Positions 12,995 through 36,767 of a stretch of 64,000 nucleotides of DNA are shown here, in pieces. The notes under the pieces were generated by a model. That model searched no databases, was not told where the DNA came from, and was given only the letters and a program-made list of their open reading frames with translations. Each line of letters opens with the position of its first letter. Positions within the stretch are counted from its first letter, which is position 1. A program made the translations under genes and the position numbers. Source of the DNA: an uncultured archaeon (GTDB taxonomy: Archaea; Asgardarchaeota; Lokiarchaeia; Sigyniarchaeales; SOKP01). The DNA is taken from positions 64,001 to 128,000 of the forward strand of contig CAZALK010000008.1 in NCBI GenBank assembly GCA_964486045.1, in the 5' to 3' direction.

Positions 12995-13672
12995 TTAATC
13001 GAAAACTAGATATTTGGTTGCTAAGAACTGGATGGATTCCGCAAAAGTTTTAACATGGTCAGCCAGCATCATTATGTCTTGAATCAATTCTTTTAGATAA
13101 ATGAAAGTTCTTGATAAGTAATCCATATCGTAATTGTAGAGACGGTTTAAAATTTGCCATTCTTCTTTCCTCATTCTACGCCTTTCTTCCTTAATACTTT
13201 CACAGACGTCATGAGCCTTACTTAAATTGGAACCGATTAACTTAACAGCCTCAGAGAGCTCATTTGAAATTACTTTTAAAGATTTTAGAACGCTTCGAAT
13301 TTGCAATTTAAATTTTTCATCAGGAAAAACTGCTCGATATAGGAGTAATTTGTTGGCTATAAATTCCCCGATGTTTTTAATTTCATTGATTTTAGCAAAG
13401 AGTTTTAATCTATCTGTTTTGGAAAACATTAATTTTGATTTAAAAATCTTCGATTCGAACCGTTTCTTAATTTTGACTTCAGAAAATGTGTCTATTACAG
13501 ATTGCAGGTTTTCTTCAAAACTTTCGAAATTCTCCTCCACAAGAAACTCAATACCTTCAATTAATTTCAAGTTCTGTTCATTAATTACATCCATAAATAG
13601 ATGAGTCAATTTGTCAATGCTTAGTTTGTTTAATTCTTTATCATCTATAGACTTCTCTTCTATCTCTTTCAT
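12995..13672 (-). CDS. DUF47-like protein (intact copy), first gene of the pit operon
   Basis: Helical PhoU-like pattern; sits directly upstream of pit; truncated paralog at 36097-36681. Confidence 0.75.
   Translation of the reverse strand: MKEIEEKSIDDKELNKLSIDKLTHLFMDVINEQNLKLIEGIEFLVEENFESFEENLQSVIDTFSEVKIKKRFESKIFKSKLMFSKTDRLKLFAKINEIKNIGEFIANKLLLYRAVFPDEKFKLQIRSVLKSLKVISNELSEAVKLIGSNLSKAHDVCESIKEERRRMRKEEWQILNRLYNYDMDYLSRTFIYLKELIQDIMMLADHVKTFAESIQFLATKYLVFD
13341..13407. repeat. 67-bp perfectly identical tract shared with 36365-36431
   Basis: aggagtaatttgttggctataaattccccgatgtttttaatttcattgattttagcaaagagtttta in both copies, whose flanks carry many synonymous differences. Confidence 0.92.
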
Positions 13673-13736
13673 TTAAACCAATTAAATCAAAAATTATTGT
13701 TATTTAAATAAGTATTTCATAGCTTTTAAGCAGATA

Positions 13737-13762
13737 CTATATATTTCTATAGATCTATATGG
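13737..13762. promoter_or_regulatory. candidate phosphate-regulon operator upstream of the DUF47-pit operon
   Basis: CTATATA-TTTCTATAGATCTATATGG. Confidence 0.45.
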
Positions 13763-14048
13763 AATTTCGTGTAACCACGCTTATTAATTATTAGTGCATT
13801 AAGTAGTGAACAAAAAGAAAAATTAAAATGCAATTAAGTTAGAAAATAAGCATGTAAAACTTTCAAAGTCCATGCTCTCCTCTTCCTCTCCTAAGAATTA
13901 AAAATTAGAATTAAAAATTTGCTTTAGCTGACTTTTCCAGCGTTTGAATAAGAGAAAAAGAGAATTATATAATATTCTTAATAAACAAAAATTACACCGA
14001 AAACAGACCAAAAACTGTATAAAAAGATATTCTTTATATACTCAAAGA

Positions 14049-15035
14049 TCAAGAAACTTTGAAATAACCGTAATCGTCAAGGTTTCTCTTTAGTTTTCCA
14101 ATAGCTTCCGGAAATATAGGAATGAGATTTTCATCTAAATATAACTCTTCTAATGAACTTAGCTCACTTAAGAAAGGCGGGATTTGACTCAATTGGTTAC
14201 TTGCTAAATCTAATAACTTTAGACGTGTGAGGTTCTTAAGTGACTCGGGTATTGTCTTAAAATAATTACGTCGCAAATCTAAATGCTTTAAATACTGAAG
14301 ACCGCTAAGAGATGGGGGAAATAATTCGAAAGAATTGTAAGACAAGACTAGATACTTAAGACTTTTTAGTCTCACGATATCCTCCGGGATTATTTTGCCA
14401 TTGTTAAAGATTCTCAATCCCGTAATTCTGAGATCTTTACCAATGTAATAAACGTTACTTGGGTCGCCAATACCGGTTATATCCTCCAAATATCTAGCAA
14501 ACGTAAAATGTTTCCCTATCTTTCTCTCTATGGTTTCAAGAACTAAAACATCGTCGATAAAGATCATACTTCGAAGCTCGTCTTCGGTCAAGTAATCGAT
14601 GTACCTATTAAAAACTAAATATTCCCTTGTCTTCTGACCCCCCTCAAATAGACGTTTTAAAATCTCAAGTTTAAATATTATACTAGCCTTAGCCTCACCG
14701 ACGTCGGTTAGTTTTTTTAATAGGGGGAATGCTAAGCTTCTATGAATCAAACGCGTATCATAATCATGTTCTACCCATGCCTGCAGGTTGGAACAATGCC
14801 CCCAAAACTCTTCCTTTGGAGTTATGCTATTCTTGGTGGTATCTGAACTTCTATCTAATCGCTTAAGTGACTCTGACGCTTCATCTATAGAATGAATATC
14901 GTCAAAATCCCTAACATTTTCTTGGGAAATATCTAACAAAATAGACTTGCATTGTCTAAACTTTTTACCCTTTATATATATGATAGTTTTATCTCCCCTA
15001 AGAGAGAGAGATATATATTCATTGACTTTAAACAT
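14049..15035 (-). CDS. 'FWGHCSNLQAW' domain plus C-terminal leucine-rich repeats
   Basis: FRQCK..SIDEA..FWGHCSNLQAW..YDTRLIH..FPLLKKL; LRRs LKYLVLSYN, LKHLDLRRN, LKLLDLASN, LEELYLDEN. Confidence 0.88.
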   Translation of the reverse strand: MFKVNEYISLSLRGDKTIIYIKGKKFRQCKSILLDISQENVRDFDDIHSIDEASESLKRLDRSSDTTKNSITPKEEFWGHCSNLQAWVEHDYDTRLIHRSLAFPLLKKLTDVGEAKASIIFKLEILKRLFEGGQKTREYLVFNRYIDYLTEDELRSMIFIDDVLVLETIERKIGKHFTFARYLEDITGIGDPSNVYYIGKDLRITGLRIFNNGKIIPEDIVRLKSLKYLVLSYNSFELFPPSLSGLQYLKHLDLRRNYFKTIPESLKNLTRLKLLDLASNQLSQIPPFLSELSSLEELYLDENLIPIFPEAIGKLKRNLDDYGYFKVS

Positions 15036-15138
15036 GTTTATATAAAACCCTTACTATATGGAGAAATAAAGTTATACTTTATTAAATTTTAACCTTATAA
15101 TTTGAGCAGACCTAATATTTTATAAAAAAAATAAAAAA

Positions 15139-18100
15139 TTATTGATTAAGCCTCAAAAAATCTTGAAAATATGAAAATGAGGCGATCTCAGTAGTTCGAA
15201 TAGGTAGAAAGTTAGAAATGTCTACCCACCTAGAAGGTAATCTTCCTAGGTTTGTATATGGTCCAGTTAAAACCACTTGAGTGAACTCTCGTCCTCTGTA
15301 GGTACTTAAAAATGCATTGGAGTTAGGGAGTATCGTACTTGAACTTCGTATGTATTTATGGTTGAAGTATGCTATATAATTCGAGTCGATGATAGTGGCC
15401 CCTGCCTTCTTTATAATAAACATAAAGTCTTGATAACTAAATGAGACTGGTCGAGTGTTATCCGCGCGCAATTCTCGTTCAAAAGAAAGCGATAGTAGCA
15501 CGAGGTATCGTAACTTTGTGATCTCGGAGATTTTTCCATAGGGATTACTAGAGTCTTCTAAGTTGATATCTACAAATGCTTCACCGGATCGTGGCAACCA
15601 TGTTTGGTCTGAAGTTGTTGTGGTTATGTATTGATATCCATAATCTATGCTTAAATCTTGAGATTGACCAAGATTCTGAGTAATGAAAATTCTAACTTTC
15701 CGAGAGCCGGCGGGTTGAGATTCAATTAAGTCTTTTAAGATATCCACTCTTTCATCGATTATCCTTTTATTATACTGTTCTCTAAATGCGGTGTCATAAT
15801 ATGACCAATCCAAATGACTTCTGCTTATTCGAGTAAATTTATCGGAGAACTTCTCCTTATCAATAGTTAACTTAAATATCTCTCCATCGACAATGCATCC
15901 ATAAAAATAGAGCTCGATCGTGGATGAAGTAAGGTCTTGAAAACCTCTATTTAACTGTAACCTCAAATTATCTTTAATCTTCCCTCCAAGGGAATCTACC
16001 GATGTATCAGTTGTAAAAGATCTTGTTAAATCTCTTCTAGCAAACATAAGGGTGTTATATGCATCTTCAAGATTTTTAGCTACTAATTTCCTATAATGTG
16101 ATTCAGATTCAACTTCGGAATAATATTTTGAAGTAAAGTGACTCATAACTTCTTGCTCTATGACGCTCATAATATCTTCATAAGCCATCATCTCTAGTGT
16201 CACTCGATTTATTTTAGGATCAGTCAAAGCATTGTCAATCTTATATTGGTTGAAAGATGTAAGAAAACTAGTCCCTATTGCACGCCCAATATATTGGTTG
16301 ATATGATTTATCCCAAAATCTCTCTTTAAATAAGCAGGTACAGAAATCCCTCCAGATAAAAAGGGTGAGGGGGCATAGCCGAAATAAAACGCGTTGTCAG
16401 CACCATTATCTCCCAAGATGGGCAAATACAAAAATGAATTCCCATATAAATATGATGGTAGGTGATTCTGAATAGCCCCCACAGTAGTAAGAGGTAAATA
16501 TCGTTTATTCTGACGATATCCATCCTGACTATCTTGAGAACTTGAAATGATATTCGCATCAATTATATAATCAACAACTGATTGGAAATGAATCCCTAAA
16601 GGCATTGCATGATAAAGCCCACCGCTAGTGAAATACCACATGGATCTTAATAATATTAAAGTCATAGTGAAGGGACCAACAAGATACTGGAACGCTTCTA
16701 GAAGAATAAGTCCGCGATCCAATTCAGAAAGACTGGAACCTGCATGGGATGTAGAGAACTCTTCATTAGCAGTGTTTAGTGAACCTAAGTTCATGATTAG
16801 GTCTTGAGTGTCGAGAATTATCTCATCAATTTCGTCTCTATTTTCAACACCAGGGTCTTCCCAGCTCATTACGATATCTTTGAAATTTTGGAGAAATTCT
16901 TTCATGGAAAGTTGACCTTTACCGTAAGGATTACCATCTTGATCACGATAAAATAATTTGTTAAATTGACTGAATCCAACTTTTTTCTTTAATCGAGTAA
17001 ATATCGCTTCTAAATCCTTGTCACTCCTTGCAGCGTTGTCGTCATATATAAATTCATCTCCTATGATAACTAGCCTTTGATTGAGCTTCTGAAGGTCTTT
17101 TAGGATGGAGAATACAGGCATAACTTTCGTATTCGCTCCTGCTGTGAGCTTAGCTATTTGGGAAAGTTCTATATAGCCTTTAAATAGATCATCAGTAGAT
17201 ATAGGGTTAGAATCGGGAAGTTTAAGTAAAGAATCTTGCATGACTTTTCGTCTTTGAAGAACTGTGGAACTAGAAACAACTTTCTTATGAGCATCAGTTG
17301 GAATGATTGTAGAATGAACTGGTTGTATAAGATATGTTAGCTTCGTACCTGCCTCATGTTTAGCTGAACGAAGATAGTCAAGGGTGTAGTATTTTTGAAT
17401 TCCGGGGAGTAAGGGTAGTCCTAAAACAATTTCCTGGGTTACTGGGTCTGTATAAGAAATGGATATAGGATCTGAAAGTGCTTGATTTAAAATTTGTGCC
17501 AGAGTCTCAAGGGGCATCACAGCAATTTCAATGAATTGGCCATTTGAATGGCGTATAAATACTTCTCCTATATTCAGAAATCCGTTCTTACTTAAGAAGA
17601 CCCCTTCAAAAACCTTTATAAGTCTACCACCAACAGAATAACTATATCCGTCGGCTGTACCCGAAGGTAATTCTAACTGAGGTGTCTCTGCTAGTAGTAT
17701 ACCATTCTCATTCCTATCATTATGCACAGCTAATAAATTACCAGATAAAATCCTATTAATTTCTTGTTGGCTTAATCTGGAAGGTTCCTTTACAACATAC
17801 TTATCGTTTTCTAAAAGAACAAAATAGGGGACGTTTTGAATTAAGTCTAATGGAATTGGAGTCGTTGTTGGTACATAGACCTTGAAACTGTTATCATAAG
17901 ATATTTGATAAAAGCCATTTAAGTCCTGAGTTATAAGCTGTTCAAGATTTAAATTCTCCTGTTGCCACCTAGGTATTTTAGTAACTTCGAATTTATCCAT
18001 TACAAGCTGTAGCATAGAATCAGCCTGTGAAGCTGAGAATATTTGAGAAGCGTAAACCTTTATTTGGTCATTGAAACTTTTATCTTTAAATAAATTATAT

Positions 18101-20958
18101 AATTCATTCATAAAAGTCACCTTGTTGTTTGAACTTATCTTTTCGTTAATAAGTTTAGAGACTTTTGAATATAGTTCTATGAATTTGGCGTACTTCCTAG
18201 TTTCTTCTCTTGACCTAGATCCTCGGTAAGTAGAGACTATATCACTTGGTTCTTGTATGAATGTAAGTTCTTTAATAACTCTGAATATCGACGAAGGATC
18301 ATCTGGATCCAAAGCTACAACCCAATGTTCATTTTGAGTTTCGATATTAATGTCGTTCAGAGCGACGCTCCTTGATGTAGCACCAAAAATTGTACTAAAC
18401 AAGTCATAAATGATATTCAAAAGATAATCACTTTTGACGTTGTTAGCATTCTTAACTTCCCAATTATAAAATCCTATGCCTTCAACTAAGAGAGAAATGA
18501 GGTCTCCTTCTCTCCAATTATCATTCGACCCGAACAAATCTGCATCGTTATTTATCTTATCGACGATACTTTGTAAAGTATTTCCATCAAGGATTTGTTC
18601 CATGTCTGTTACCATGTCTTGGTTTTTCGTGGAATAAGGATTAAAGACAAGATATGTATAAAGCGTTAATTTATCAAAATCTATCGAGTAACTTTTCGCG
18701 ATTAATTCCATAAATAAGAAATAAGGCAGTATTCCCAAAAATGAAAGTGCTTGAAGTTCCCACCCTATCTGGACGCTTCTTGACTCAAACCTCATATGTC
18801 TTGTATTTGGGGCAGTCTCGAAACTCTCTGCAAATTTAAGCATGGCACGTGGAAGGCCATCTGAAACAAACTCCCTCTGTAAGCTCTCTATATCCGCGGT
18901 TGATAAGAATGAATCGATATCTGAAGCTAAATCTGTCTCCCCGATGGTTTGTACATTGAAATGGGCACGTACTTCTTCCAAGAAAAATACTAATGCTGAA
19001 TACTTAAGCGCTTGATTGAACAAGTCGTCGACATAAGTATAACCCTTAGTTCTTGTTGTATAATCAAACTTCTTTTTATATTTTTCCTCAAAAATTTTGC
19101 TTGCAAGCTTTGTAGCAACATCTTTTTGCGCTATGGTTGCGCTAGGATTTAATATATTATGTGCACCCATATAAGTATTTTCAATAAAAGACTCCAAAGC
19201 GGTTAGAATACCACCCATACTCGCAACAACTTCCGACTTTTCGAGATTAAAAGAAATGACTGAAGGATTAACAAATTGATTAATAACTTCTTCTATTTGT
19301 GCCACAACAGCAGGATTTAAGTTGAAGAGGTCGGTTGGATTTTTAAAGATCGGAGCGATGAGATCCTTAATTTCCACAAAACCTGGATATTCATTAAAGA
19401 ACCAATCAGGGATTGGAACCATGTCTTCAACGCCTGTTTGGGAGGTAAAGTCAGGATCTGTGACGATTTTTATACTTTCCGATAATCCTAGATATTGTTG
19501 CTGTAATGCGACTTTACTTCTAAAATTATATCCGATTAAATCGAAGACTTGTTCAATTGGCATACTCCCTCTTAAAGGAGTATTTACGATAGTTCCATCT
19601 TCTCTTATTTCTTCAACTTCGTAGCCAGGTAAAAGGACATTAGGAAATTCTCCATCACCTTTAAACATAGGTATTTGCCCTTCTTTTAAGCCAAGCATTG
19701 CTATAAAGCCATCCAAGTCAAGACCACCCCTTATGATCTTCTTAGGGTTTCCAACCTGATCAGTCCACCTCACGTATGGTGCGCCAGTTAAGGGGTTATA
19801 TCTTAAGAAGGGAAGAACCCAATGCCTAACTCCATTCTCGTCAGTATAGACGGGATCTCCTGATGTTTCAGCAAATAATTGTTCGGAGATAGCAACGATC
19901 TCTACATCAGATATGCCCTTATCAAGAGTGAGAGACTGGATGGTTGAAAGTCTTTTTTGTTCATTTCTTTTAGATTCGTATCTAATTTTCATTTGCTCAT
20001 TATACGTGAACTCCTCTTGTAATTGGGGTTGAATGACCTGCAATTGAGATTTAGCTGCTGAGGGTGAAGCAACCGTTTGAACCGAAACTAAGTTTTTGGT
20101 CACAAATGGAGCGATTTCATTAGCTTTAAGAGCTGGTTTAGGCTTTAAGAATTCTGAAAGCTGTAGTCTGCCTTCAGAGAACTTTCGATTGTAACGATTC
20201 TTTAGGGCATTAAATATAGCATCCGAACCTAAATCTAAACCATAAAGCATAATGCCGACTCCAGCTCCTCCAAAGAAGAAGCTAGGAATAGTGGCTAGGA
20301 TGCCTGAGACTGTATCGAAGTCTATATATTTCTTAAGAGATGCCCGAATACTTGTTTTATCTAACTTAACCTCTTGCTGCGTTGCAATCTGGGTATCTGT
20401 ATCTGTACCCCCTTTACTAATCCTACTTTTAATAGCACTTGAGACACCTCCAATAAAAGCTTCACGGAAAGAGGTCACAAGTAATGAAAAGAAGTCTGCT
20501 GCTTCTTGATCTCCACCTAAGTTAAGAACCATTCGTTGAGTCCATTTTTCAAGATAGGGGTCTAAATACAATTCTTCTATGATCTCCGAGGCGACACCAA
20601 AAGGTATCGTTACGAGACCTAACGCAACAGCTTGCTTAAAGGAGTATGCGGGCATTGAGGCGATCTTAGCCACAGTCAAGGGTAATAGGACAAGCGTAGA
20701 GATCAACGTTGACCAAAATGTGACTAAAACAGTATAATCGCGTTCAGCTAAGTTAGTACTATCTGTAAACGCCATCTGAGCTTGGTTCACATAATCGGAA
20801 ATGGTATAGGAGACAGTCTGTGCTAAAATAGTTCGTGCATGGTTATCAGAAGAATCAGTGGTATCAATATAACGTTGTGTATAAGATATTGTAGGATAGT
20901 GAAAACCAATAGTTACTGAGTTGTCTGGACGATCATTTGGATCTTGATAGCCGACCAC
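15139..20958 (-). CDS. 1939-aa hypothetical protein, probably the 5'-truncated C-terminal part of a giant protein
   Basis: Long ORF with no convincing start or RBS; frame stays open about 15 codons further upstream to a junction near 21000; three hydrophobic helices near the start. Confidence 0.75.
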   Translation of the reverse strand: MVGYQDPNDRPDNSVTIGFHYPTISYTQRYIDTTDSSDNHARTILAQTVSYTISDYVNQAQMAFTDSTNLAERDYTVLVTFWSTLISTLVLLPLTVAKIASMPAYSFKQAVALGLVTIPFGVASEIIEELYLDPYLEKWTQRMVLNLGGDQEAADFFSLLVTSFREAFIGGVSSAIKSRISKGGTDTDTQIATQQEVKLDKTSIRASLKKYIDFDTVSGILATIPSFFFGGAGVGIMLYGLDLGSDAIFNALKNRYNRKFSEGRLQLSEFLKPKPALKANEIAPFVTKNLVSVQTVASPSAAKSQLQVIQPQLQEEFTYNEQMKIRYESKRNEQKRLSTIQSLTLDKGISDVEIVAISEQLFAETSGDPVYTDENGVRHWVLPFLRYNPLTGAPYVRWTDQVGNPKKIIRGGLDLDGFIAMLGLKEGQIPMFKGDGEFPNVLLPGYEVEEIREDGTIVNTPLRGSMPIEQVFDLIGYNFRSKVALQQQYLGLSESIKIVTDPDFTSQTGVEDMVPIPDWFFNEYPGFVEIKDLIAPIFKNPTDLFNLNPAVVAQIEEVINQFVNPSVISFNLEKSEVVASMGGILTALESFIENTYMGAHNILNPSATIAQKDVATKLASKIFEEKYKKKFDYTTRTKGYTYVDDLFNQALKYSALVFFLEEVRAHFNVQTIGETDLASDIDSFLSTADIESLQREFVSDGLPRAMLKFAESFETAPNTRHMRFESRSVQIGWELQALSFLGILPYFLFMELIAKSYSIDFDKLTLYTYLVFNPYSTKNQDMVTDMEQILDGNTLQSIVDKINNDADLFGSNDNWREGDLISLLVEGIGFYNWEVKNANNVKSDYLLNIIYDLFSTIFGATSRSVALNDINIETQNEHWVVALDPDDPSSIFRVIKELTFIQEPSDIVSTYRGSRSREETRKYAKFIELYSKVSKLINEKISSNNKVTFMNELYNLFKDKSFNDQIKVYASQIFSASQADSMLQLVMDKFEVTKIPRWQQENLNLEQLITQDLNGFYQISYDNSFKVYVPTTTPIPLDLIQNVPYFVLLENDKYVVKEPSRLSQQEINRILSGNLLAVHNDRNENGILLAETPQLELPSGTADGYSYSVGGRLIKVFEGVFLSKNGFLNIGEVFIRHSNGQFIEIAVMPLETLAQILNQALSDPISISYTDPVTQEIVLGLPLLPGIQKYYTLDYLRSAKHEAGTKLTYLIQPVHSTIIPTDAHKKVVSSSTVLQRRKVMQDSLLKLPDSNPISTDDLFKGYIELSQIAKLTAGANTKVMPVFSILKDLQKLNQRLVIIGDEFIYDDNAARSDKDLEAIFTRLKKKVGFSQFNKLFYRDQDGNPYGKGQLSMKEFLQNFKDIVMSWEDPGVENRDEIDEIILDTQDLIMNLGSLNTANEEFSTSHAGSSLSELDRGLILLEAFQYLVGPFTMTLILLRSMWYFTSGGLYHAMPLGIHFQSVVDYIIDANIISSSQDSQDGYRQNKRYLPLTTVGAIQNHLPSYLYGNSFLYLPILGDNGADNAFYFGYAPSPFLSGGISVPAYLKRDFGINHINQYIGRAIGTSFLTSFNQYKIDNALTDPKINRVTLEMMAYEDIMSVIEQEVMSHFTSKYYSEVESESHYRKLVAKNLEDAYNTLMFARRDLTRSFTTDTSVDSLGGKIKDNLRLQLNRGFQDLTSSTIELYFYGCIVDGEIFKLTIDKEKFSDKFTRISRSHLDWSYYDTAFREQYNKRIIDERVDILKDLIESQPAGSRKVRIFITQNLGQSQDLSIDYGYQYITTTTSDQTWLPRSGEAFVDINLEDSSNPYGKISEITKLRYLVLLSLSFERELRADNTRPVSFSYQDFMFIIKKAGATIIDSNYIAYFNHKYIRSSSTILPNSNAFLSTYRGREFTQVVLTGPYTNLGRLPSRWVDISNFLPIRTTEIASFSYFQDFLRLNQ

Positions 20959-20975: not shown

Positions 20976-21111
20976 CTACAAGAACATTTGCGAAGGAACA
21001 CAGTTATCACATTTGATTTCATCAAATTCTTCCCAATCGCTTCTAAATACTTCAATTATTCCCCTTCCACTAAGCTTAGGACAGGTTCGGGGTTTTCGAA
21101 TAGTTAACATT
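20976..21111 (-). pseudogene. remnant of a small DnaJ-type zinc-finger ORF
   Basis: MLTIRKPRTCPKLSGRGII...IKCDNC resembles a degenerate CxxCxGxG...CxxC, cut where the giant ORF begins. Confidence 0.4.
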
Positions 21112-21426
21112 TCTCTAAAATGTATCATACTAGACAAAAACACATTCTTATATAAAGAAAAAATCCCAAAAGGAATTGTAAAAATTAAACGGTTTTTGGC
21201 ATAAGCCCCCATTTAATGGCTTCCAACATAATATCATAAAAATCGATATCACTTTCATTCTGCTTTTTTTCATCCTTCATATCATATTTCACCTTTAATC
21301 TACTTTCAGTTATCCACCTATTTAAAATTTAGTATGAGTTGAATTTTAAGTTTGGATAAATTAAAATAAAATTTTACAGCGAATTTTTCTTTAAAAGTGT
21401 CAGATACAATAATAAAATAATTTATT

Positions 21427-22467
21427 ATGACTTGTAAAAAAATTAATACTTTTAGGTGTGTCATAAATGAAAAAGATTCTCAAAAGATCAAAAACTTTTC
21501 TGTTTATCCTTCTGAGTGGTATATATACGATCAGGGAGTTCCTGATGACTATAGGGCCGTTGAGATTTCGCATGGTAATATTTCTACCATCGGCTTAGAT
21601 CGTGGTGTTTATGTCTGGGCTAATATGTATTCTAAGAATAACACATCTGGAGAAACACAATTTATTGCTCAAGTAAATTGGGGTTATTGGAATGATTCTA
21701 CATGTGTGTATAAAGGTGGGGTTATACCTGTTGAAGACGATGGAAGAATCTCAGAACGGATTTTTGGAAATGTATCTCTTTTTTACCAAGATGCATTTAG
21801 CTATAGTAATTTCGAGCAAAATTATACTGATTTTAATCTATTATCAATTACTTATTGGAATGAGACCTATAACGACTATTATGCTAGAGTCAATTTTTCA
21901 GATAGCGGCATTTTGCTTAGTTTTGAAGCGATCCCTGTAGGAAACTTTACTTTAATTTCTCAACCTTCTCGATTACCACCTATGTTCAGTTTCACTACTA
22001 ATAACGGACTTTTGGATATTAACTCCACTAATATAAAGCTCAAGATTAATACAACCGATGCTGATAACAATAATGACGGAATAAAAGATACTGATTACTT
22101 ATACCGCACCTTTATAAATTCGGTATGGACTGATTGGCTAACAATCCCCCCACTAATCCATTATGACTTAGGTTCTGTCTCTTCAGGTGAATATAATATA
22201 ACATTGGAAGTGAAAAATATGTATGGTACCACACAGGAGCAGATCACCGTGCATTACACAGAAAATATCCCCCCTATTGAAACGAAAGATACTACTATCC
22301 CTAGCGAATCAATCTTCGGTTATTCTGCTATAATAATTATCGTTGTATTGTTCTTCAGTATTTCAATTAGACTTTCAAAGACAGAAGAATATTGCAAAAA
22401 TAAGAGAACTACATTTTTTCCCCTTTTTTTTATTACAAATCTTTCACTCTTATTTTTCTTTTATTAA
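21427..22467 (+). CDS. putative extracellular/surface protein with a C-terminal anchor (N-terminus possibly decayed)
   Basis: Many N-x-S/T sequons, DADNNNDG loop, Ig-like GEYNITLEVKN, and SIFGY plus a hydrophobic helix resembling a Loki-CTERM/PGF-like tail. Confidence 0.6.
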   Translation: MTCKKINTFRCVINEKDSQKIKNFSVYPSEWYIYDQGVPDDYRAVEISHGNISTIGLDRGVYVWANMYSKNNTSGETQFIAQVNWGYWNDSTCVYKGGVIPVEDDGRISERIFGNVSLFYQDAFSYSNFEQNYTDFNLLSITYWNETYNDYYARVNFSDSGILLSFEAIPVGNFTLISQPSRLPPMFSFTTNNGLLDINSTNIKLKINTTDADNNNDGIKDTDYLYRTFINSVWTDWLTIPPLIHYDLGSVSSGEYNITLEVKNMYGTTQEQITVHYTENIPPIETKDTTIPSESIFGYSAIIIIVVLFFSISIRLSKTEEYCKNKRTTFFPLFFITNLSLLFFFY

Positions 22468-23986: not shown

Positions 23987-25309
23987 TCAATTTTGATGTG
24001 AAGAAGCAATGGACAATTCTCTTCCTTCTTTTATTAAAGATAATTCTTGTTTCTCCAATTCAACAGTAACGAAAGGAATAATCTCTTCAGGCATACCTTC
24101 CAGATATAAAGCCAATTTTGAAAGTGATTTTTTGCTTAATCGTTTTAAATGCTTGGATAACAGCTTTCTAAAGTGGGGGTTCTCAAGTAACTCTTCATAA
24201 AGACAAAAATCCCAAAAATAACGGCTTCGAGGATTTTTTTTCAATCCTTTTCTTATCAACTTGAGAGTCTTTTTTATTCTCCCATGATCCATGTAAAACA
24301 TCCCTAAGCGTAGCAAACAAAAATCAAAGGAGAAATCTATTTTCTGTGCTTGTTTAAATAATTGCATCGCATTGATATAATTTCTCTCTCTGGCATAAAG
24401 GTGCCCCATTTCAACTAACACCTTTCGATTCTTATTATCTTGAGTGCGGATATGATTGAAAATACCTAGAGCTTTAGAAAATTCATTTAAATATTTGTAA
24501 ATCTTCCCTAATTCTAATAAGGCACTAATATTTCCAGGAATAAAATCTAATATCTTTTTTATAAAGATTTTGGCTTTTTGAAACTCCTCAAACATCGAAA
24601 ATTCGGAAATGATCATTTTCCAGACATCAGGATATAATTCTTTTTCATTTTTTACATACAATAGCATGGCATTATCTAGAGAATTTAAGATTCTTATGAA
24701 ATAGGCAGCGCCACTTTTAGGATCATCAACTGAACTACTTACTGAAAATAATAAGTCAACATGGTTAGTATTGTGTAAATCTGGGGTGGTTTTTTCAAAA
24801 TAGGAAAAATACAAGCTGCTATGTTTAGAACAGAGTAATGTTTCAATTAGGGGTAAAAAATCTAGAAAAGTAAATTTGTGAATCAGTAATTGAATTTCTT
24901 TTTTTGACAAGTCTCCTAAAAAGCTAAAACTTGTTAAAAATTTTCTTATCTCTACATTTTCCTTACTAAACTGAATTGCAATCTCTTCTTTGTATACTTG
25001 TATCGCACGCGATTCCCCCGCTTTTACCAGCTCTTTCAAGATATGAAGAGTTATACTATAGTGCATTATATCAGTATTGTAATCATTATTAACCCAATTT
25101 TGTAGCATCATGCAATATGTAATAAAAGAATCTCTGAAGGTTACTCCTATTCTACTAGCAATGGCAAGACCAATAGACTCATTAATCATGTTTGATACAT
25201 ACTCTAACAACATATCTTTTACAAACACGTATATCTTATCCTTTTCAAATTTTATAGAAAGATAATCATTACATTCATAGTAATCAATCAATAGATCGAT
25301 ATTTATCAC
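23987..25309 (-). CDS. degenerate 'FWGHCSNLQAW' domain plus TPR repeats
   Basis: FITYCMMLQNWVNNDYNTDIMH..LKELVKAGE..YKEEI; TPRs ALLELGKIY, VLVEMGHLY, LLRLGMFY. Confidence 0.8.
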   Translation of the reverse strand: MINIDLLIDYYECNDYLSIKFEKDKIYVFVKDMLLEYVSNMINESIGLAIASRIGVTFRDSFITYCMMLQNWVNNDYNTDIMHYSITLHILKELVKAGESRAIQVYKEEIAIQFSKENVEIRKFLTSFSFLGDLSKKEIQLLIHKFTFLDFLPLIETLLCSKHSSLYFSYFEKTTPDLHNTNHVDLLFSVSSSVDDPKSGAAYFIRILNSLDNAMLLYVKNEKELYPDVWKMIISEFSMFEEFQKAKIFIKKILDFIPGNISALLELGKIYKYLNEFSKALGIFNHIRTQDNKNRKVLVEMGHLYARERNYINAMQLFKQAQKIDFSFDFCLLRLGMFYMDHGRIKKTLKLIRKGLKKNPRSRYFWDFCLYEELLENPHFRKLLSKHLKRLSKKSLSKLALYLEGMPEEIIPFVTVELEKQELSLIKEGRELSIASSHQN

Positions 25310-25550
25310 CTTTTTTCATAGTTCTTCTTTTGTTGTTTCTAATTCTTATTACTACAATTGGGATATATAAAGAAAAAATTTTGCATATGATCTTGTGGTT
25401 CGATTAATGTCGTATTTAATTAGTAAAATTTTCTTGAATTTAAAAATTTTTAATTAAATGTAAAAGAACTTCCCTAGTTGAAAATTACAAAGTTAACCCC
25501 GACTAATAATATTAATACTTTTTTTCTTTAAATATTCAAAAAATCAGGGA

Positions 25551-26840
25551 TTGTTAATGTCAAAGATTTCACCTAAAAAAATTGTTGATGGAGTTCAGCA
25601 TAAAATAAGACAGATTAAAGTTGAAGTATCAAAAGTTGCAGAGTATTTTAAGCCAAAGTTTGGGAGATTACGAGTTAAACTTCAATTAAGGAGTGCTAAT
25701 AGAAAATTTCGGAGCCGTAAATTTCTTTCAGCGTATCATATATTGATTATCGCATCATCAAATGCTAAAATCTTTAAGATGCGAAAGCAGTTCATGGAAA
25801 TTATCCAAGAAAGAATCAAGCAAACACTTAATCAAATTGATAGAAAGATACAAAAAGACACAACTGTGCTGAGAAGAAATCTGAGTGAGCAATTAGAAAA
25901 AAGACAATTTTCAGTTGTAATAGATAAATGCACTTCATTTTTTACTTCATTACAGAATTATCCTCAAACTGATATAACTGAAAAATGCAAGGCTTTAATT
26001 CGTAAAGAATTTGATATCGCAACTAAATTGTTCTGGGAGGGTGTCTATAAAGAAGACTTTGCTAAAATCGTAAATTTGAAGAAACGCCGCAATTTTGGTT
26101 TAGCAATTAATATAGGGAGAGAATTTCTTAAGAAAACTCAGAATGTATCATTAGTACCAGGAATTAAGATATATAGAGACAGAATTTTTGATTTGATTCA
26201 AGACCCAATTGCTCAAAAATGGTTAGGAAAATACAAAACTATAAAGAATTATACCACGAAAATAAGAACTCATAGGCAATTTGAACAAGCGGTAATGCAA
26301 TCAGAAAAGTTTCTAAAATATAGTCTAAAAGACCAAGACGTTGTCGCGGTTCACCAGCTGAGACTTAAAACTACTAAAAAGGTTGAAAGGCTTCAAACAG
26401 ATTTAATCTTTTTTGGAAGGAAAGATAATTATGATAATTTTGTAACTAGGGCAATGATTAATTATGAACTCGGATGTTATGAGAGAGCAATTAAATATAT
26501 AGATAAAGCAATAAAATTACTGAAATTATATCAATTAGAAGAACAAGAAGTTCTCATTAAAAATACCAAAATATTTGTTAAGAATGTGCAATTTAAGTTC
26601 TTATGCCAGGATAAAATAAGAGAAAGGGAAATACGGGTTATGATTGATACTGCCCGTAAGTTATACTATGATGAAAAAGAAAGTAAAGCTATAAGCGTAT
26701 TATTAGAAGCTCAGGGGCAGTTTAATATGTTTTCCACATTATATAAAGATTTAGAGAATAAAGCTTATAAAAAGCTATTTCGGGAGATCCGAAATGGTAT
26801 TAACAAAGAACGAATAAAAGTGAGTGAGATTTCATTATAA
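25551..26840 (+). CDS. basic alpha-helical (TPR-like) hypothetical protein
   Basis: 429-aa ORF, K/R-rich; YELGCYERAIKYIDKAIKL is TPR-like. Confidence 0.65.
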   Translation: MLMSKISPKKIVDGVQHKIRQIKVEVSKVAEYFKPKFGRLRVKLQLRSANRKFRSRKFLSAYHILIIASSNAKIFKMRKQFMEIIQERIKQTLNQIDRKIQKDTTVLRRNLSEQLEKRQFSVVIDKCTSFFTSLQNYPQTDITEKCKALIRKEFDIATKLFWEGVYKEDFAKIVNLKKRRNFGLAINIGREFLKKTQNVSLVPGIKIYRDRIFDLIQDPIAQKWLGKYKTIKNYTTKIRTHRQFEQAVMQSEKFLKYSLKDQDVVAVHQLRLKTTKKVERLQTDLIFFGRKDNYDNFVTRAMINYELGCYERAIKYIDKAIKLLKLYQLEEQEVLIKNTKIFVKNVQFKFLCQDKIREREIRVMIDTARKLYYDEKESKAISVLLEAQGQFNMFSTLYKDLENKAYKKLFREIRNGINKERIKVSEISL

Positions 26841-30797: not shown

Positions 30798-30824
30798 ATA
30801 AAATAGATTTGACTATAATATGTA

Positions 30825-30912
30825 TAGTTTTTGAAATATTTAAAACTAGTTTTTGATTTTTCCAATACTAGTTTTTGAGTTATTTAAGACTAGTCTTTGA
30901 AATACTAAAAAC
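30825..30912. repeat. four tandem 22-bp quasi-palindromic repeats (operator or iteron array)
   Basis: TAGTTTTTGAAATATTTAAAAC, TAGTTTTTGATTTTTCCAATAC, TAGTTTTTGAGTTATTTAAGAC, TAGTCTTTGAAATACTAAAAAC at 30825/30847/30869/30891, followed by TTTAAATA. Confidence 0.9.
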
Positions 30913-31023
30913 TTTAAATACTTAAGTATCTATTTATCTTCTTAATATATTTAAATTTTAGAAAAGACAATTATTTGAAACGAGGGTTTAAAAATTAGTA
31001 ACTTAGAGAATTACAAGGAGATT

Positions 31024-31368
31024 TTGAAATTTCTTGAAGGACATCCAATCTTAGAAGGATTGTTTGATAGGTTAAGAAACTCTTTAGAAGACCTATCTGA
31101 AAATAAGTTTGAGGCGCAGTGTGATAAGTATCTAGATTGTTTGGAGTTTTTAAGTGAAATTGTTACGTCTTACGGAGAGATTTTGGAATTTCTTGAAGAA
31201 GAACCGATTCTAAAGGTGGAGTTTGATAGTTTAAGACATTCTTTGGAGTCTCCCCCAGATAATTGTTCAGAACAAAATTTTGAAAGACATTATGAAGATT
31301 ATCAAGAATTGCTGAGCTTTTTACATGAGATAGTAGCGCTTCCGAAAAATAAGAAGTTTTTTGTTTAA
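31024..31368 (+). CDS. acidic helical protein built from two internal repeats
   Basis: FLEGHPIL..FDRLRNSLE..FE..Y...LEFLSEIV and FLEEEPIL..FDSLRHSLE..FE..Y...LSFLHEIV. Confidence 0.65.
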   Translation: MKFLEGHPILEGLFDRLRNSLEDLSENKFEAQCDKYLDCLEFLSEIVTSYGEILEFLEEEPILKVEFDSLRHSLESPPDNCSEQNFERHYEDYQELLSFLHEIVALPKNKKFFV

Positions 31369-31471
31369 AAGTTCAAGAGTATTATAATATTAAATTATGA
31401 AAGAAAGATAAGGTGAAAATAGCTTTAGATCTTAACGCAGAATTAATAAACTCCATATCTATTATGTAATT

Positions 31472-32126: not shown

Positions 32127-32600
32127 ATGAAAACAAAATTGAAGAAAAAGTCGTTAGAATTACTCCTTACGATATTGGGATGTGATCAAGAGATGTTAGA
32201 ACTAGTCCTACATCTCTTTGAAAGGTTTAAAGCTGAGTTTGGGAAAGATATCCTACATAATGTTGTTAAGGATTTAAAGGAAACGGATGGGAGATGTCAT
32301 TTTGAAAATTTAATACTAGGTGTTTTGTTGGAGGTATTAGATGAAATAAATAGAAAATATATGCTAGAGTTTGATTGCTCTTGCTTAGAACAAAAAAGGT
32401 ATTATCAGAAGGATTATAATGGAGTTACGTACCCTTCCAGAAATATAATTATGTTGTTAGGAGGTAGCACTGATATTAATGCAAAAGAATGGTGTAGTAC
32501 TATAACCCATGAAATATTACATTTTATCTTTTACAATTTTGGCATCGCCTACCAATGGATTAACGAAAGAATGGTAAAAAGTTTAATGAAAGATACTTAA
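32127..32600 (+). CDS. HExxH zinc-metallopeptidase-like protein (ImmA/IrrE-like)
   Basis: YNGVT...NIIML...STITHEILHFIF...NERMV. Confidence 0.6.
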   Translation: MKTKLKKKSLELLLTILGCDQEMLELVLHLFERFKAEFGKDILHNVVKDLKETDGRCHFENLILGVLLEVLDEINRKYMLEFDCSCLEQKRYYQKDYNGVTYPSRNIIMLLGGSTDINAKEWCSTITHEILHFIFYNFGIAYQWINERMVKSLMKDT

Positions 32601-32684
32601 AAGTTTCTATAGCTAAATTTTAATATGTAACTTCATTAATCACTATGCAGCCAAGAGTATAAAAATATTCGGATATGATCGAAA

Positions 32685-34061
32685 TTGCCTATAAAATCCA
32701 CCTTATTAGATACGTTTAAGAAAAACGTGGACGGTTTAAAGAGAAAGCAGTCAAAGTTTGTCTATGGGATAACGATTTCCTCATTCCAACCTTTCAATCC
32801 AGAGAGGTTTCTCGTCGGTCGAGTTACTTTTCAACCTGTAGGGAAAGGAAATATTGACGTACCACTGTTAATAAGTAAATCCCTTGAAATTTTAAGAGAA
32901 ACTACAGAATTTCTTTTTGATATATCAATTCAAAAAACTATAGCTCTCTTTAACGGAGATTTTTACGGTTTTTCTTATTTTGAGGATGAGACTTCCACTA
33001 AAAAAAAAGGCAAGGTTAGTTTTGAGTTAAAGGCTTTAATAGAAGATTCCTATCAAGATTGTTTCGTTATAGAATTACCAGAGTCCGACTTTAACTTTAA
33101 TGACACCAGACCAATATATGTCCAACTTCTAACGGCTTCATTGACAAAAAAAGAACGGGATAGTTCTGCTTGGCTTCATAATGCGAACATATCCGAAACT
33201 TATGATTTCGAAGAAGAGTTTTCATTGATGAGTCCCCGCCCTAGAAAGCCGCCTATTGCATTAGGATTGAACGATTTAGGTATGATTGAGGACATTGATC
33301 TTGAACACAGAGTTTTTATGGTAGAACACGAAACCGTATCCGAAATATCTAGAAGCAAATCACCAGATTTACAAGATAAAGTATTACAGGAGTTTAAGAT
33401 AAACAAACATATAACGTTAAAATTACTCGACAATGCAACATTAGGGAAGAAGTCAACACGTATTTTTATTGATAATAGTCCCTTTTTACAATGTATGTAT
33501 ATAATGTTAAATAATCCTCAAGAAAATCCCCTACAATCAGAAATTGATTCAATCGATGAGGCGACGGAAAAATTAGATAGTCGATTAGAATTCTTCTTTA
33601 GTCCTCCCACCCCCATCTCCCCCGAGTCTATATTTTGGGCTCATTGCTCAAATCTCCAAGTATGGTATGAACTCGGATATGATTCCAGAATTCTTCACAG
33701 TAATTTATCTTTTCCACTTCTAAAGAAATTGGTTGATGTTGGAGATCCTAAAGCTAAACAAGTTTTTAAAGAAGAGATAGCGAAACGTATATTAGATCAA
33801 TATCTTCCTGTAACTATTTACTTGTTAGACGAACGATATTTGGATTATCTAAATGACTCTGAAATTGAATATATATTCCACACACTGTCTGAACAAATTA
33901 TGATTCCGAATTCTGAACTTAAAAACGAAAAATTTGCCAACGTTCTACTCAAAACTGGATCTTCCTATCTAAAGAAGGGCGTATATGCAGGACATCTAGC
34001 TATTGATCTATGTATAAAACTCAGAAACCTTCTTAACAGCCATCCTAGTAGGGAAAAATAA
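32685..34061 (+). CDS. unknown N-terminal domain plus C-terminal 'FWGHCSNLQAW' domain
   Basis: FKINKHITLKL..FLQCM..SIDEA..FWAHCSNLQVW..YDSRILH..FPLLKKL..GDPKAK.VFKEEI. Confidence 0.85.
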   Translation: MPIKSTLLDTFKKNVDGLKRKQSKFVYGITISSFQPFNPERFLVGRVTFQPVGKGNIDVPLLISKSLEILRETTEFLFDISIQKTIALFNGDFYGFSYFEDETSTKKKGKVSFELKALIEDSYQDCFVIELPESDFNFNDTRPIYVQLLTASLTKKERDSSAWLHNANISETYDFEEEFSLMSPRPRKPPIALGLNDLGMIEDIDLEHRVFMVEHETVSEISRSKSPDLQDKVLQEFKINKHITLKLLDNATLGKKSTRIFIDNSPFLQCMYIMLNNPQENPLQSEIDSIDEATEKLDSRLEFFFSPPTPISPESIFWAHCSNLQVWYELGYDSRILHSNLSFPLLKKLVDVGDPKAKQVFKEEIAKRILDQYLPVTIYLLDERYLDYLNDSEIEYIFHTLSEQIMIPNSELKNEKFANVLLKTGSSYLKKGVYAGHLAIDLCIKLRNLLNSHPSREK

Positions 34062-35115: not shown

Positions 35116-35480
35116 AAAGTGTTAAAAATGATTGAAATAACAGAAAATAAGACTTTTGAGAATTTTATGGTAGATTATCATTATAGTAAAAACAGGAGTG
35201 ATTTTGTAATAATTAAAAACATTAATTCCGAACCTTATACCATTCTACATTTTTTTTAAATTCATTTTCCAAACCTTATAATCATTTGAATATTTAATTG
35301 AGGAATATGTGTCCCAATTCTCTCAGTTTAATTCAGATTTATTAGTATTACCTATTTTATTCTTTTATCCTTAGAAGGTACTCTTTCTTTTATAATTCAA
35401 TTCAAAAATCTTTCAATTTCAAAAAATCATCACTCTTATCTAACATATATAAGAAAGACTCTTTCTAAATCAAGAGAAAC

Positions 35481-35753
35481 ATGACTGAATTACGAACAGA
35501 AAATAAGTGGTTAGAAAGCCTCCACAACCTAATGCATAAAGCATATTCAAGAAGGAATTTAGTCCAGCTTGATAAGATAATAGAAGGTATTTCCAGCTTA
35601 ATAGAAGAAAACGCTAATTATCAGAGGAGAAATAAGGGGAAAAGGCTTAGGTCAGCAAAGTATGAAAGAAAGAAATATTTTGGCTTTATTGCTGAAATTC
35701 AAGATCTTCAGTACCGGATTAAGCAAAGAGCAGAAAAAAGGAAAGATTCTTAA
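35481..35753 (+). CDS. small basic hypothetical protein
   Basis: 90-aa ATG ORF. Confidence 0.6.
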   Translation: MTELRTENKWLESLHNLMHKAYSRRNLVQLDKIIEGISSLIEENANYQRRNKGKRLRSAKYERKKYFGFIAEIQDLQYRIKQRAEKRKDS

Positions 35754-35796
35754 TAGTAATCAGTCGTAGTTTTATAGAAAATTAACAGGTGAAAGA

Positions 35797-35934
35797 ATGG
35801 AAAAATTAAATTTTAACAATTGGTTTAAAGGATTTTTAGAGGAAAAAGGACTTTCTAAGAAGATGAGTATTTCACATTTTCTGGAACATCTTGGAAATTG
35901 GATCATAACAGGTGAGGGTGAACTAACCAGATGA
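35797..35934 (+). CDS. 45-aa small ORF below the track cutoff (MEKLNFNNWFKGFLEEKG...)
   Basis: AGGTGA RBS; ATGA stop/start overlap with ORF 35931. Confidence 0.55.
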   Translation: MEKLNFNNWFKGFLEEKGLSKKMSISHFLEHLGNWIITGEGELTR

Positions 35935-36119
35935 CTGAGATCAAAACGCCAGAATATTGGGAAGAATTATCAAAGAAAGGAAATATCCAAAGCAAAATCA
36001 CTTTTGAAATTGAGGAGTCAATAAAGGAATACACGAAAAGATCCCCGTCGGAGATTTTCATTTCGCATAATTCTAGAAGCATATTTAGTGATGAGTTTAC
36101 CAATGAATTACTTTATTAA
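35931..36119 (+). CDS. small ORF ending at the island boundary, possibly truncated
   Basis: Translationally coupled to 35797; stop lies just before the 36121 junction. Confidence 0.5.
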   Translation: MTEIKTPEYWEELSKKGNIQSKITFEIEESIKEYTKRSPSEIFISHNSRSIFSDEFTNELLY

Positions 36120-36681
36120 TATAAATGAATGTTCTCGACAAATAATCCATCTCGTAATTATAAAGTCGATTTATAAGTTGCCATTCTTCTTTTCTCATCT
36201 TTCGCCGTTCTTCCTTGACTTCTTCACAAATATCATGAGCTTTACTTAAATCAGATCCTATTAATTTAACAGCATTTGAAAGCTTATTTGAAATTAATTT
36301 TAAAGATTTTAACACACTTCGAATTTGTAATTTAAATTTTTCATCCGGGAATACAGCTCTATAAAGGAGTAATTTGTTGGCTATAAATTCCCCGATGTTT
36401 TTAATTTCATTGATTTTAGCAAAGAGTTTTAGTCTATCTGCTTTTGAAAACATTAATTTTGACTTAAATATTTTAGATTCAAACCGTTTTTTAATTCTGA
36501 CTTCAGAAACGGATTCTATAACATACTGTAAATTTCTTTCAAAACTATCGAAATTCTCCTCCACAAGAAACTCAATTCCTTCAATTAGCTTTAAGTTTTG
36601 CTCATTGATCGCGTCCATAAATAAATGAGTTAAATCATCTATGTTTAGTTTATTTAACTCTTTCTCCTCTATCTCTCTCAT
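36097..36681 (-). pseudogene. 3'-truncated copy of the DUF47-like gene
   Basis: Colinear with 12995-13672 up to ...SRTFIY, then INKVIHW* instead of LKELIQDIMM... Confidence 0.9.
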
Positions 36682-36748
36682 TTAAATCAAAAATAATTGC
36701 TATTTTATTAAGTATTAATTTCATGACTTTTAAGCAGAATGTTAATTA

Positions 36749-36767
36749 TTTCTATAGATCTATATAG
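36749..36767. promoter_or_regulatory. candidate phosphate-regulon operator (second DUF47 promoter)
   Basis: TTTCTATAGATCTATATAG conserved relative to 13744-13762; homology ends right after it. Confidence 0.45.

Follow-up and report, generated by a model that had tools for sequence, protein, structure and literature searches.

Insertion of about 23 kb into a Lokiarchaeial phosphate operon, probably by general recombination without an integrase of its own

The phosphate-transport operon in the window, by which we mean the whole 64,000-nucleotide stretch of contig C8 analysed here, has received an insertion of about 23 kb that is real but mechanistically ordinary. Its first gene is present twice in diverged form, once complete at the head of the operon and once broken on the far side of the cargo. 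Comparison with related strains suggests that the complete copy and its promoter came in with the inserted DNA, while the broken copy appears to be what is left of the resident gene. The features are given below with their positions in the window.

11201-11854, minus strand: third operon gene, PhoU_div/DUF47, 217 aa (PF01865, E = 6.2e-28), resident flank, syntenic in all relatives
11935-12972, minus strand: PiT-type phosphate transporter (pit), 345 aa (PF01384, E = 1.3e-50), resident flank
12995-13672, minus strand: left copy, a complete DUF47-like gene of 225 aa, probably foreign over its whole informative length when set against the resident-type protein P0007
13080-13760: left arm of the diverged direct repeat
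13341-13407: 67-bp tract matching 36365-36431 perfectly, taken to be a right-to-left gene-conversion patch
13524-13552: 29-bp tract identical to 36548-36576, read as a second conversion patch
13673-13760, minus strand: promoter/operator segment which, judging from alignments, arrived with the left copy; palindrome at its upstream edge
13761-36096: cargo of about 22.3 kb, absent from all syntenic loci of relatives
36097-36681, minus strand: right copy of 194 aa, the putative remnant of the resident DUF47-like gene, interrupted after codon 188 and equal to P0007 at residues 60-188
36104-36765: right arm of the direct repeat; the resident promoter and a palindrome (36752-36765) lie within it
37515-38456, minus strand: enoyl-CoA hydratase (ECH), resident right flank (PF00378, E = 2.5e-44)

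In empty-site genomes ECH adjoins the operon directly. The order ECH, single DUF47-like gene, pit is found in the representatives of all four closest species and on at least ten JGI metagenome contigs, and each of the 45 other genus genomes with a match holds a single DUF47-like copy. A preliminary description of this DNA had proposed an insertion and expected an empty site in relatives; these empty sites support insertion into the ancestral ECH, DUF47-like, pit arrangement. The DNA upstream of the right copy is likewise collinear with the empty site of the related genome G013. The whole phosphate operon is mosaic with respect to relatives, and since the left flank of this genome is mosaic too, a scan along it for the crossover, judged by a switch of nearest relative, gave no single point.

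We call the duplicated gene DUF47-like, a name that seems acceptable from sequence comparison. Neither copy matches PF01865 at E ≤ 1, and hhalign of a shallow alignment of the gene against the neighbouring true DUF47 gave no match. Four of nine homologues with at least 85% identity match PF01865 (best E = 8.9e-7), and many database relatives carry a precomputed match to this family.

The two copies lie in direct orientation with their repeat arms starting 23,024 bp apart, as described before, and the arms align over 686 nt at 80.3% identity. The perfect 67-bp and 29-bp tracts reported within them were verified base by base; each is bounded by mismatches on both sides, and both are internal to the 660-bp repeats, not terminal. 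An identical run of 67 nt was attained in 9 of 20,000 shuffles, and in 1 of 20,000 when the shuffling was codon-aware. Across 561 aligned coding nucleotides the copies differ at 90 positions (21/8/61 by codon position), corresponding to a dS of 1.13 and a dN/dS of 0.057. By this measure the divergence is old and occurred under purifying selection, which excludes a fresh duplication, as had been argued from the synonymous differences; the dN/dS ratio shows that the copies diverged as working genes in separate genomes. The palindrome ATATAGATCTATAG (13747-13760) forms the exact upstream edge of the repeat and within the window is present only at the two repeat edges. No further contig of the same genome contains a second occurrence of the repeat.

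The origin of each copy can be judged from a near-identical strain represented by an 80,903-bp contig, whose proteins, all from Logan/ENA, were compared as proteins. Identity to the window amounts to 344/345 residues for pit (P0242), 519/524 for a phosphodiesterase (PDE) and 344/365 for Fer4, and the contig has one full-length DUF47-like gene, P0007; from the shared size and sources we infer the gene order and the location of PDE, pit, Fer4 and P0007 on one and the same contig. Residues 60-188 of the right copy are all identical to P0007. The right copy tracks its relatives up to ...RTFIYI and then reads NKVIHW-stop, which agrees with the break after ...RTFIY noted earlier, and the window lacks the resident codons 189-225. 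Over its residues 1-59 the right copy departs from P0007 at 9 positions and by a 5-aa indel, so at least one further recombination separates the two strains.

Between the left copy and P0007, in contrast, 32 of 225 residues are different, and five of these (193, 198, 202, 207 and 209) are located beyond the repeat, among the 33 residues of the tail. The closest relatives of the left copy are P0003 (92% amino acid identity), encoded on a JGI contig of 2,093 bp, and the metagenome contig L057. At the protein level this genome is therefore of the foreign type through residue 209 and then of the resident type in pit (99.7%). Since the tail of P0007 differs from the left tail, P0007 is not a pop-out product. 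Because the right copy equals P0007 at residues 60-188 and the left copy differs from it, tail included, the right copy is, judged from these proteins, the stump of the resident gene, and the left copy is wholly foreign. The left copy is indeed complete and leads into pit (PF01384) and PhoU_div (PF01865) as first described, and the analysis supports the further claim that the operon now stands under a promoter that came with the inserted DNA. A truncated DUF47 gene had been ascribed to the incoming element; the match of the right copy to the resident-type protein argues against this.

The same left junction is present in a second species background, on the 1.1-kb JGI metagenome contig L057. 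The first 200 bp of the cargo (13761-13960) are 97.3% identical to this contig, in which 200 bp of the left end of the island are joined to a left-type gene. The start of pit on L057 is 82.8% identical to this genome and 99.3% identical to L048, a contig whose upstream sequence is of the empty-site type. Compared with L048, the foreign tract in L057 extends about 57 nt past the end of the repeat (6/58 versus 1/190 mismatches, Fisher p = 0.0008), which places the parallel donor-to-recipient switch in L057 near position 13040. The LRR gene beside the junction has its closest homologue at 52% identity, so the evidence that the L057 organism shares cargo covers 13761-13960. In the nearest natural relatives left-type 5' parts are paired with left-type 3' parts (L057, P0003) and right-type with right-type (P0007, L050).

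Comparison with L057 also bears on the perfect tracts. The left and right copies agree against L057 at 38 of 138 informative sites, with runs at 13547-13532, 13406-13358, 13286-13275 and 13168-13156. The 67-bp tract holds 11 consecutive such sites, and a run of 11, the longest found, was attained in none of 20,000 shuffles. The tract is 92.5% identical to right-type relatives versus 83.6% to left-type ones. As these patches are clustered and the L057 orthologue differs from them, they point to gene conversion after the insertion, and the 67-bp tract would be one of at least four clustered conversion patches rather than a crossover scar.

The cargo encodes an LRR protein, an orphan of 1,939 aa, a glycoprotein-like membrane protein, three TPR proteins, a wHTH gene with 22-bp repeats and small orphans, and a Lokiarchaeial domain of about 150 aa is common to five of its genes. 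Its genes belong to multi-copy families of the chromosome, and contig C33 contains a collinear paralogous module amid ERCC4, DNA ligase and WD40 genes. In gene content the cargo thus appears to resemble multigene families of Lokiarchaeial chromosomes and to be unlike a plasmid or virus. Three cargo proteins were found to have no viral relatives, the giant protein gave no usable match in the ESM Atlas, and in 53 other genus genomes the island DNA found only family-level domain matches. Contigs C33 and C43 were considered as free copies of the element and ruled out, C33 being chromosomal.

The island was described as having no recognisable recombinase or transposase, and this holds after the HMM check for integrases and Rep proteins on the orphan ORFs. 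Searches of the island ORFs against Pfam, NCBIfam, PHROGs and PADLOC returned neither class of enzyme. Six-frame genome searches with PF00589, PF16795, PF00239, PF00665, PF01609, PF01867 and PF07282 gave none in the island, all matches lying outside C8:77,000-101,000. Across the four HMM libraries and the seven six-frame family searches, no replication (Rep) or recombination genes were detected in the cargo. Scans for tRNAs and Rfam families gave no match and no tRNA target, no inverted repeats pair the island ends, and neither an identical att core nor a TSD/TIR was found at the very ends of the insert. A 346-aa ORF was tried as a hidden integrase and rejected, as it is rich in N-glycosylation sites and has a C-terminal membrane anchor.

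We favour, with slightly better than even confidence, a replacement insertion by general recombination in which the element used no integrase of its own. The donor DNA would derive from another Lokiarchaeon of the same genus and would comprise about 22 kb of accessory chromosomal genes beside a complete DUF47-like gene with its own promoter; the recipient would have had the ordinary order ECH, DUF47-like, pit, PhoU_div. On the operon side a homologous crossover would have fallen in the final 45-50 nt of the DUF47-like gene, which are almost invariant, or in the start of pit. The join on the other side, inside the resident gene just after codon 188, may be illegitimate (homology-facilitated illegitimate recombination); alternatively, if a stump was present next to the island in the donor before the transfer, a second homologous crossover may have taken place with that stump. 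The cargo and the complete allele with its promoter would have taken the place of about 100 bp at the 3' end of the resident gene (codons 189-225), which would have been lost. The resident promoter and 188 codons would have been left as a stump, and a foreign promoter and foreign first gene would head the operon. Later the 660-bp repeats would have traded several short patches by gene conversion, including the 67-bp and 29-bp tracts. That the donor was linear, and where exactly the crossovers fell, we infer. The locus shows both a donor-to-recipient switch in homologous DNA and a recipient stretch that is deleted and replaced, two marks of a homology-anchored replacement, while the mosaic operon weakens any story with a single donor and a single recipient.

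The mechanism first put forward was a circle with the promoter and a truncated part of the DUF47-like gene (-88 to +575) that entered through a single Campbell crossover in the 67-bp tract. Its topology fits an insert flanked by direct repeats of the gene's 5' part; a 244-nt tree groups the left 3' segment with G013 (98/93) and leaves the right 3' segment outside, and P0014 and P0011 resemble a right-type 5' part with a left-type 3' part. However, the phylogenetic breakpoint expected at the tract was sought against the closest species and not found: the sites matching them are interspersed, and segment trees are weakly discordant. L057 follows the left copy to either side of the tract and departs from it inside, and P0007 equals the right copy on the very 3' segment that should be element-derived. 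Reciprocal chimeras and an unchanged resident distal part were not observed, the relatives instead pairing 5' and 3' parts of like type. The cargo carries no replication or recombination genes, and the tail of the left copy, which lies beyond the repeat, differs from the resident one; as a Campbell insertion cannot replace the tail, this rules against it, and we consider the circle improbable. Thus the insertion, the lack of a recombinase, the incoming promoter and the origin of the copies in different lineages survive from the original interpretation, while the circle and its single crossover do not. Site-specific or end-of-homology integration at codon 188, with a replacement 5' part fused in frame to the host tail, would also predict the pairing of like 5' and 3' parts, and the repeat does end at the same place in both copies. 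Catalysis would fall to an unrecognised recombinase or to one acting in trans, and five tyrosine recombinases are encoded elsewhere in the genome (C18, C29, C1, C23 and C25). Even with both sources of catalysis counted together this is a doubtful model, given the five differences between the left tail and P0007, the extension of the L057 foreign tract beyond the repeat end relative to L048, an identical core at the repeat ends of at most 9 bp of conserved coding sequence, and the missing tRNA target.

Metagenome assemblers can fuse related strains at conserved blocks, and such fusion could mimic a homologous junction both here and in L057. Contig C8 might accordingly mix co-occurring strains, so that the island or one of its junctions is not real as drawn. 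The source community does contain close strains, represented among others by the empty-site contig of 80,903 bp; ENA contigs of 20,021, 57,655 and 73,615 bp encode island proteins at 95-99.8% amino acid identity, and with a contig of 8,448 bp included the range is 91-99.8% (P0406/P0413, P0416, P0419 and P0420). Strong conservation also marks the blocks in which the two homologous junctions are situated. Against this, C8 contains no Ns, a clean insertion would require two independent mis-joins, and the stump-cargo joint has no long k-mer in common with the intact gene. The left junction is seen independently in the JGI assembly (L057); the stump-island junction is known from this one assembly. 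We regard an artefact as very unlikely. An old tandem duplication followed by divergence and truncation, with the intervening DNA lost in all relatives, is scarcely credible. Many local paralogous repeats exist in this genome, but the copies, at 80% identity, are as diverged as species (flanks versus G013, 75-85%), each is nearer to genes of other organisms than to the other copy, and dozens of independent losses would be needed.

Homology-facilitated illegitimate recombination, with one homologous anchor and one illegitimate join, has been described in naturally transformable bacteria and E. coli conjugation (PMC3240628). The locus shares with it the homologous switch on one side, the break inside a resident gene on the other and the replacement of a short resident segment, with no integrase needed; it differs in its Asgard host, its far larger insert (about 23 kb) and a right join that may be homologous with a pre-existing stump. 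In displacement arrays at T6SS effector/immunity, Rhs and CdiA loci a new module enters via conserved coding sequence and the old part becomes an orphan (PMC5361080, Vibrio cholerae). Here too the homology comes from a conserved gene, the functional position passes to the incoming allele and a diverged partial old copy stays alongside as a direct repeat. Unlike in these arrays, the duplication covers the promoter and the 5' end of a gene from a phosphate operon rather than a toxin tip, the 22-kb cargo is downstream of the stump, and no toxin/immunity logic is evident. Integrated elements of Asgard archaea are integrase-mediated with short (about 11-bp) flanking repeats (PMC11529989). The island resembles archaeal integrative elements as a strain-specific accessory block at a defined chromosomal site with direct repeats on either side, but it has no recombinase, its repeats, with a length of 660 bp and 80% identity, have their identical tracts inside and not at the ends, resident sequence is replaced rather than split, and its cargo consists of chromosomal gene families. 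With Campbell integration of suicide plasmids or episomes it has in common the flanking direct duplication of a homologous fragment, whereas the reciprocal chimerism and retained resident distal part of such integrations were tested here and not found.

Under replacement by general recombination the locus would provide a base-level example of a Loki-type Asgard genome gaining a large lineage-specific block without mobile-element machinery, through inter-species recombination anchored in a conserved operon gene, promoter-swapping allele replacement and later gene conversion between the repeats. This bears on the growth of the unusually large, paralogue-rich Asgard genomes and, as the phosphate operon is mosaic across species, on the freedom of recombination among related Lokiarchaeia. 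A further lesson is that a perfect tract inside long diverged direct repeats does not necessarily indicate a crossover site.

A more speculative idea, which we think unlikely, is that the island and its promoter-bearing copy of the target gene form an integrase-free 'self-targeting cassette'. If so, the carried gene would be both homology arm and functional replacement, the leftover stump would serve as second arm for the next transfer, and about 22 kb of accessory genes would hop repeatedly among Lokiarchaeial species by host recombination alone. Such a cassette would be compatible with the left junction shared by this genome and L057, two species backgrounds in which the return to host sequence falls in one and the same conserved block of 50 nt.

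A diverged direct repeat lies in the phosphate-transport locus of this Lokiarchaeial genome (5.18 Mb, 45 contigs, G+C ~31%), whose close homologues in databases carry Promethearchaeota or Lokiarchaeota MAG names. As the preliminary description had it, the repeat is genuine: 13080-13760 and 36104-36765 are 80.3% identical over 686 aligned nt at a spacing of 23,024 bp, and the perfect tracts of 67 and 29 bp that they share are exact, with mismatches at both borders. An identical run of 67 nt was attained in just 9 of 20,000 shuffles. Each repeat carries one gene copy:

12995-13672, minus strand: left copy, DUF47-like gene (225 aa), heading an operon with pit (PF01384) and PhoU_div (PF01865)
36097-36681, minus strand: right copy, truncated DUF47-like gene (194 aa)

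The right copy agrees with all relatives up to ...RTFIYI and then reads NKVIHW-stop. A Pfam search gave no match for either copy; judged by their homologues the name 'DUF47-like' is nevertheless fair, since PF01865 is matched in four of nine homologues with at least 85% identity and is also annotated in many database relatives. The coding regions differ at 90 of 561 aligned nt (21/8/61 by codon position), and the resulting dS of 1.13 and dN/dS of 0.057 indicate that the copies were functional genes in different genomes while they diverged. Homology begins ~88 nt 5' of both start codons, exactly at the palindrome ATATAGATCTATAG. This 14-mer containing a perfect palindrome (13747-13760 and 36752-36765) forms the exact upstream edge of both repeats; the palindrome occurs twice in the window, both times at the repeat edges, and relatives share it. 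It may be an operator of the phosphate operon, possibly recognised by the AbrB-PhoU fusion protein encoded nearby (10094-11098).

Comparison with related genomes shows that the insertion is real and clearly delimited, and its history of recombination is instructive. The representatives of the four closest species (G013, G018, G002, G004) each have a single DUF47-like-pit-PhoU_div operon, with the homologue of the enoyl-CoA hydratase (37515-38456) 0.6-1.4 kb 5' of it, and none of the 18 ORFs of the intervening cargo (13761-36096) is found at the syntenic locus. The same empty site is present in at least ten JGI metagenome contigs, and all 45 other gene-bearing genomes of the genus have a single DUF47-like copy. 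The DNA 5' of the right copy is collinear with G013, while for the left copy all similarity to relatives ends at 13760. The window flanks are 75-85% identical to G013, a level equal to that between the two copies, so that one copy derives from another species of the genus.

The origin of each copy is indicated by an 80,903-bp contig (Logan/ENA) of a near-identical strain. Its pit (344/345 residues), phosphodiesterase (519/524) and ferredoxin-like protein (344/365, compared with that of the right flank) match those of the window, and it encodes one full-length DUF47-like protein, P0007; the co-location of the four is deduced at the protein level from the shared 80,903-bp figure and shared sources. 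From residue 60 to residue 188, as far as the break, P0007 equals the right copy. Against the left copy it has 32 differences in 225 residues, and five of these (193, 198, 202, 207 and 209) lie in the C-terminal tail beyond the repeat. This indicates that the resident gene survives as a stump, the right copy, its codons 189-225 having been lost, and that the left copy is of foreign origin throughout its informative length. The near-identity of the two strains is broken precisely by the left copy and the cargo. P0007 cannot have arisen by pop-out from the arrangement seen here, because its tail differs from that of the left copy. Stump residues 1-59 differ from P0007 at nine positions and an indel, and the whole phosphate operon is mosaic among relatives; thus, more than one exchange occurred. 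Along 11200-13760 the closest relative among seven metagenome contigs (L004, L047, L048, L049, L050, L052 and L054) switches every few hundred bases, which points to homologous exchange being frequent between the Lokiarchaeial species of these sediments.

The left junction recurs in a second background, the 1,096-bp metagenome contig L057. Its gene is left-type and its first 200 nt are 97.3% identical to the left end of the cargo (13761-13960), while its pit start is 82.8% identical to that of our genome and 99.3% to that of L048, a contig with DNA of the empty-site type upstream. L057 and L048 are ~80% identical through the gene and 98-100% from ~13040 on, the switch lying ~57 nt past the repeat end (mismatches 6/58 versus 1/190, p = 0.0008). 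In both backgrounds the return to host sequence appears to fall within the final 45-50 nt of the gene, which hardly vary, as expected of a homologous crossover. L057 could itself be chimeric, a short metagenome contig joined at a conserved block.

The preliminary description had placed the crossover either in the 67-bp tract or at a 9-bp core; a crossover in the tract is not borne out. Sites compared with G013 and the three other close species gave no breakpoint there, left-siding and right-siding sites being interspersed in both halves, and segment trees placed left copy, right copy and G013 in one clade (99/100) with internal orders that are weak and differ between segments. On either side of the tract no DNA relative is closer to the left copy than L057 (5' 90.0%, 3' 88.5%, tail 94.1%), but inside it the identity is only 83.6%. 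The left copy equals L057 at 68 sites and equals the right copy, with L057 different, at 38. The latter are clustered (13547-13532; 13406-13358, 11 sites in the 67-bp tract; 13286-13275; 13168-13156), their longest run and run count being matched in 0 of 20,000 shuffles. Within the tract, identity is 92.5% with right-type relatives versus 83.6% with left-type ones, which points to the stump as donor of sequence to the working copy. These patterns argue that the perfect tracts are a record of gene conversion after insertion and not the original crossover.

The best-supported explanation is a replacement insertion via host recombination. Donor DNA carrying the cargo and a complete allele with its own promoter would have recombined homologously with the conserved 3' end of the DUF47-like gene or with the beginning of pit. 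Its far end would have been joined past codon 188 of the resident copy, by an illegitimate event resembling homology-facilitated illegitimate recombination (PMC3240628) or through another homologous exchange, with a stump that the donor already had; patchy gene conversion would have followed. Integration of a circle by a single crossover, as proposed earlier, is rejected mainly because such a circle, bearing only a truncated fragment, would leave the resident tail in place. A strain-chimeric assembly of contig C8, from which the window comes, is a much less likely alternative. The stump-cargo junction is seen in a single assembly. Replacement insertion is a mechanism of known kind with no new machinery, and its closest analogues in outcome are the displacement arrays at T6SS effector, Rhs and CdiA loci (PMC5361080). 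The earlier proposal of an insert-borne promoter holds, and the operon would now be driven by it. A terminator-like hairpin with T-run lies at 36041-36055 (minus strand), ~40 nt past the stop codon of the stump, and transcription starting at the surviving resident promoter may stop ahead of the cargo.

The cargo (~22.3 kb) indeed lacks a recognisable recombinase or transposase: searches with Pfam, NCBIfam, PHROGs and PADLOC found neither these nor Cas1, Rep or viral hallmarks, and six-frame searches with seven families gave no match within it. The tRNA and Rfam scans were likewise negative, three cargo proteins had no relatives in viral contigs, and the five tyrosine recombinases of the genome all lie on contigs other than C8. 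A ~150-aa domain is common to five cargo genes and has ~45 matches on 21 contigs of the genome, and a paralogous collinear module lies on contig C33 amid ERCC4, NAD-ligase and WD40 genes:

20983-22373 (C33:10636-12150); 30902-31398 and 32687-33870 (with C33 and contig C43): module of a 78-aa ORF, a 346-aa glycoprotein-like protein (92-97% nt identity), a wHTH gene, a 114-aa ORF and a 458-aa protein

Given these chromosomal copies and the lack of element genes, the cargo looks like ordinary Lokiarchaeial accessory chromosome. Module identity is 92-97% (nt) in the first part and only 67-88% in the rest (C33, C43), a pattern suggestive of recent duplication, or conversion, involving distant loci. 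Some cargo proteins are 91-99.8% identical on ENA contigs of 20,021, 57,655, 73,615 and 8,448 bp and others are unique, among them the LRR gene next to the junction, whose best homologue has 52% identity; the content is thus variable.

Repeats of 22-bp period (30825-30912) separate the divergent wHTH gene and 114-aa ORF; as a wHTH homologue (42% identity) occupies the corresponding C33 position, they look like the regulatory region of a chromosomal module, not a plasmid origin. The 1,939-aa orphan gene (15139-20958) stands out in composition, with a G+C of 0.34-0.41 versus ~0.31 for the genome, and has no family, defence-system or Atlas match, and weak paralogues (C9, C10) for its first ~250 residues only. 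A 157-aa orphan ORF (32127-32600) with an HExxH motif (THEILH) near its C-terminus may encode a small metalloprotease-like protein. At the right end of the cargo (35569-35781), ~155 nt within and after a 90-aa ORF recur at C1:787416-787570 (95% and 86% identity, adjacent) in the intergenic gap between UBC-like E2 and Fe-S protein genes, possibly as a gene fragment or a small repeated element. Elsewhere in the genome, contig C29 (25,965 bp) has a 100% identical 640-bp direct repeat near both ends (1-640 = 25031-25670) and a tyrosine recombinase at 17188-17754 (PF00589, 77 bits); it could be a circular plasmid or virus of this Lokiarchaeon, or else an element integrated in its genome.
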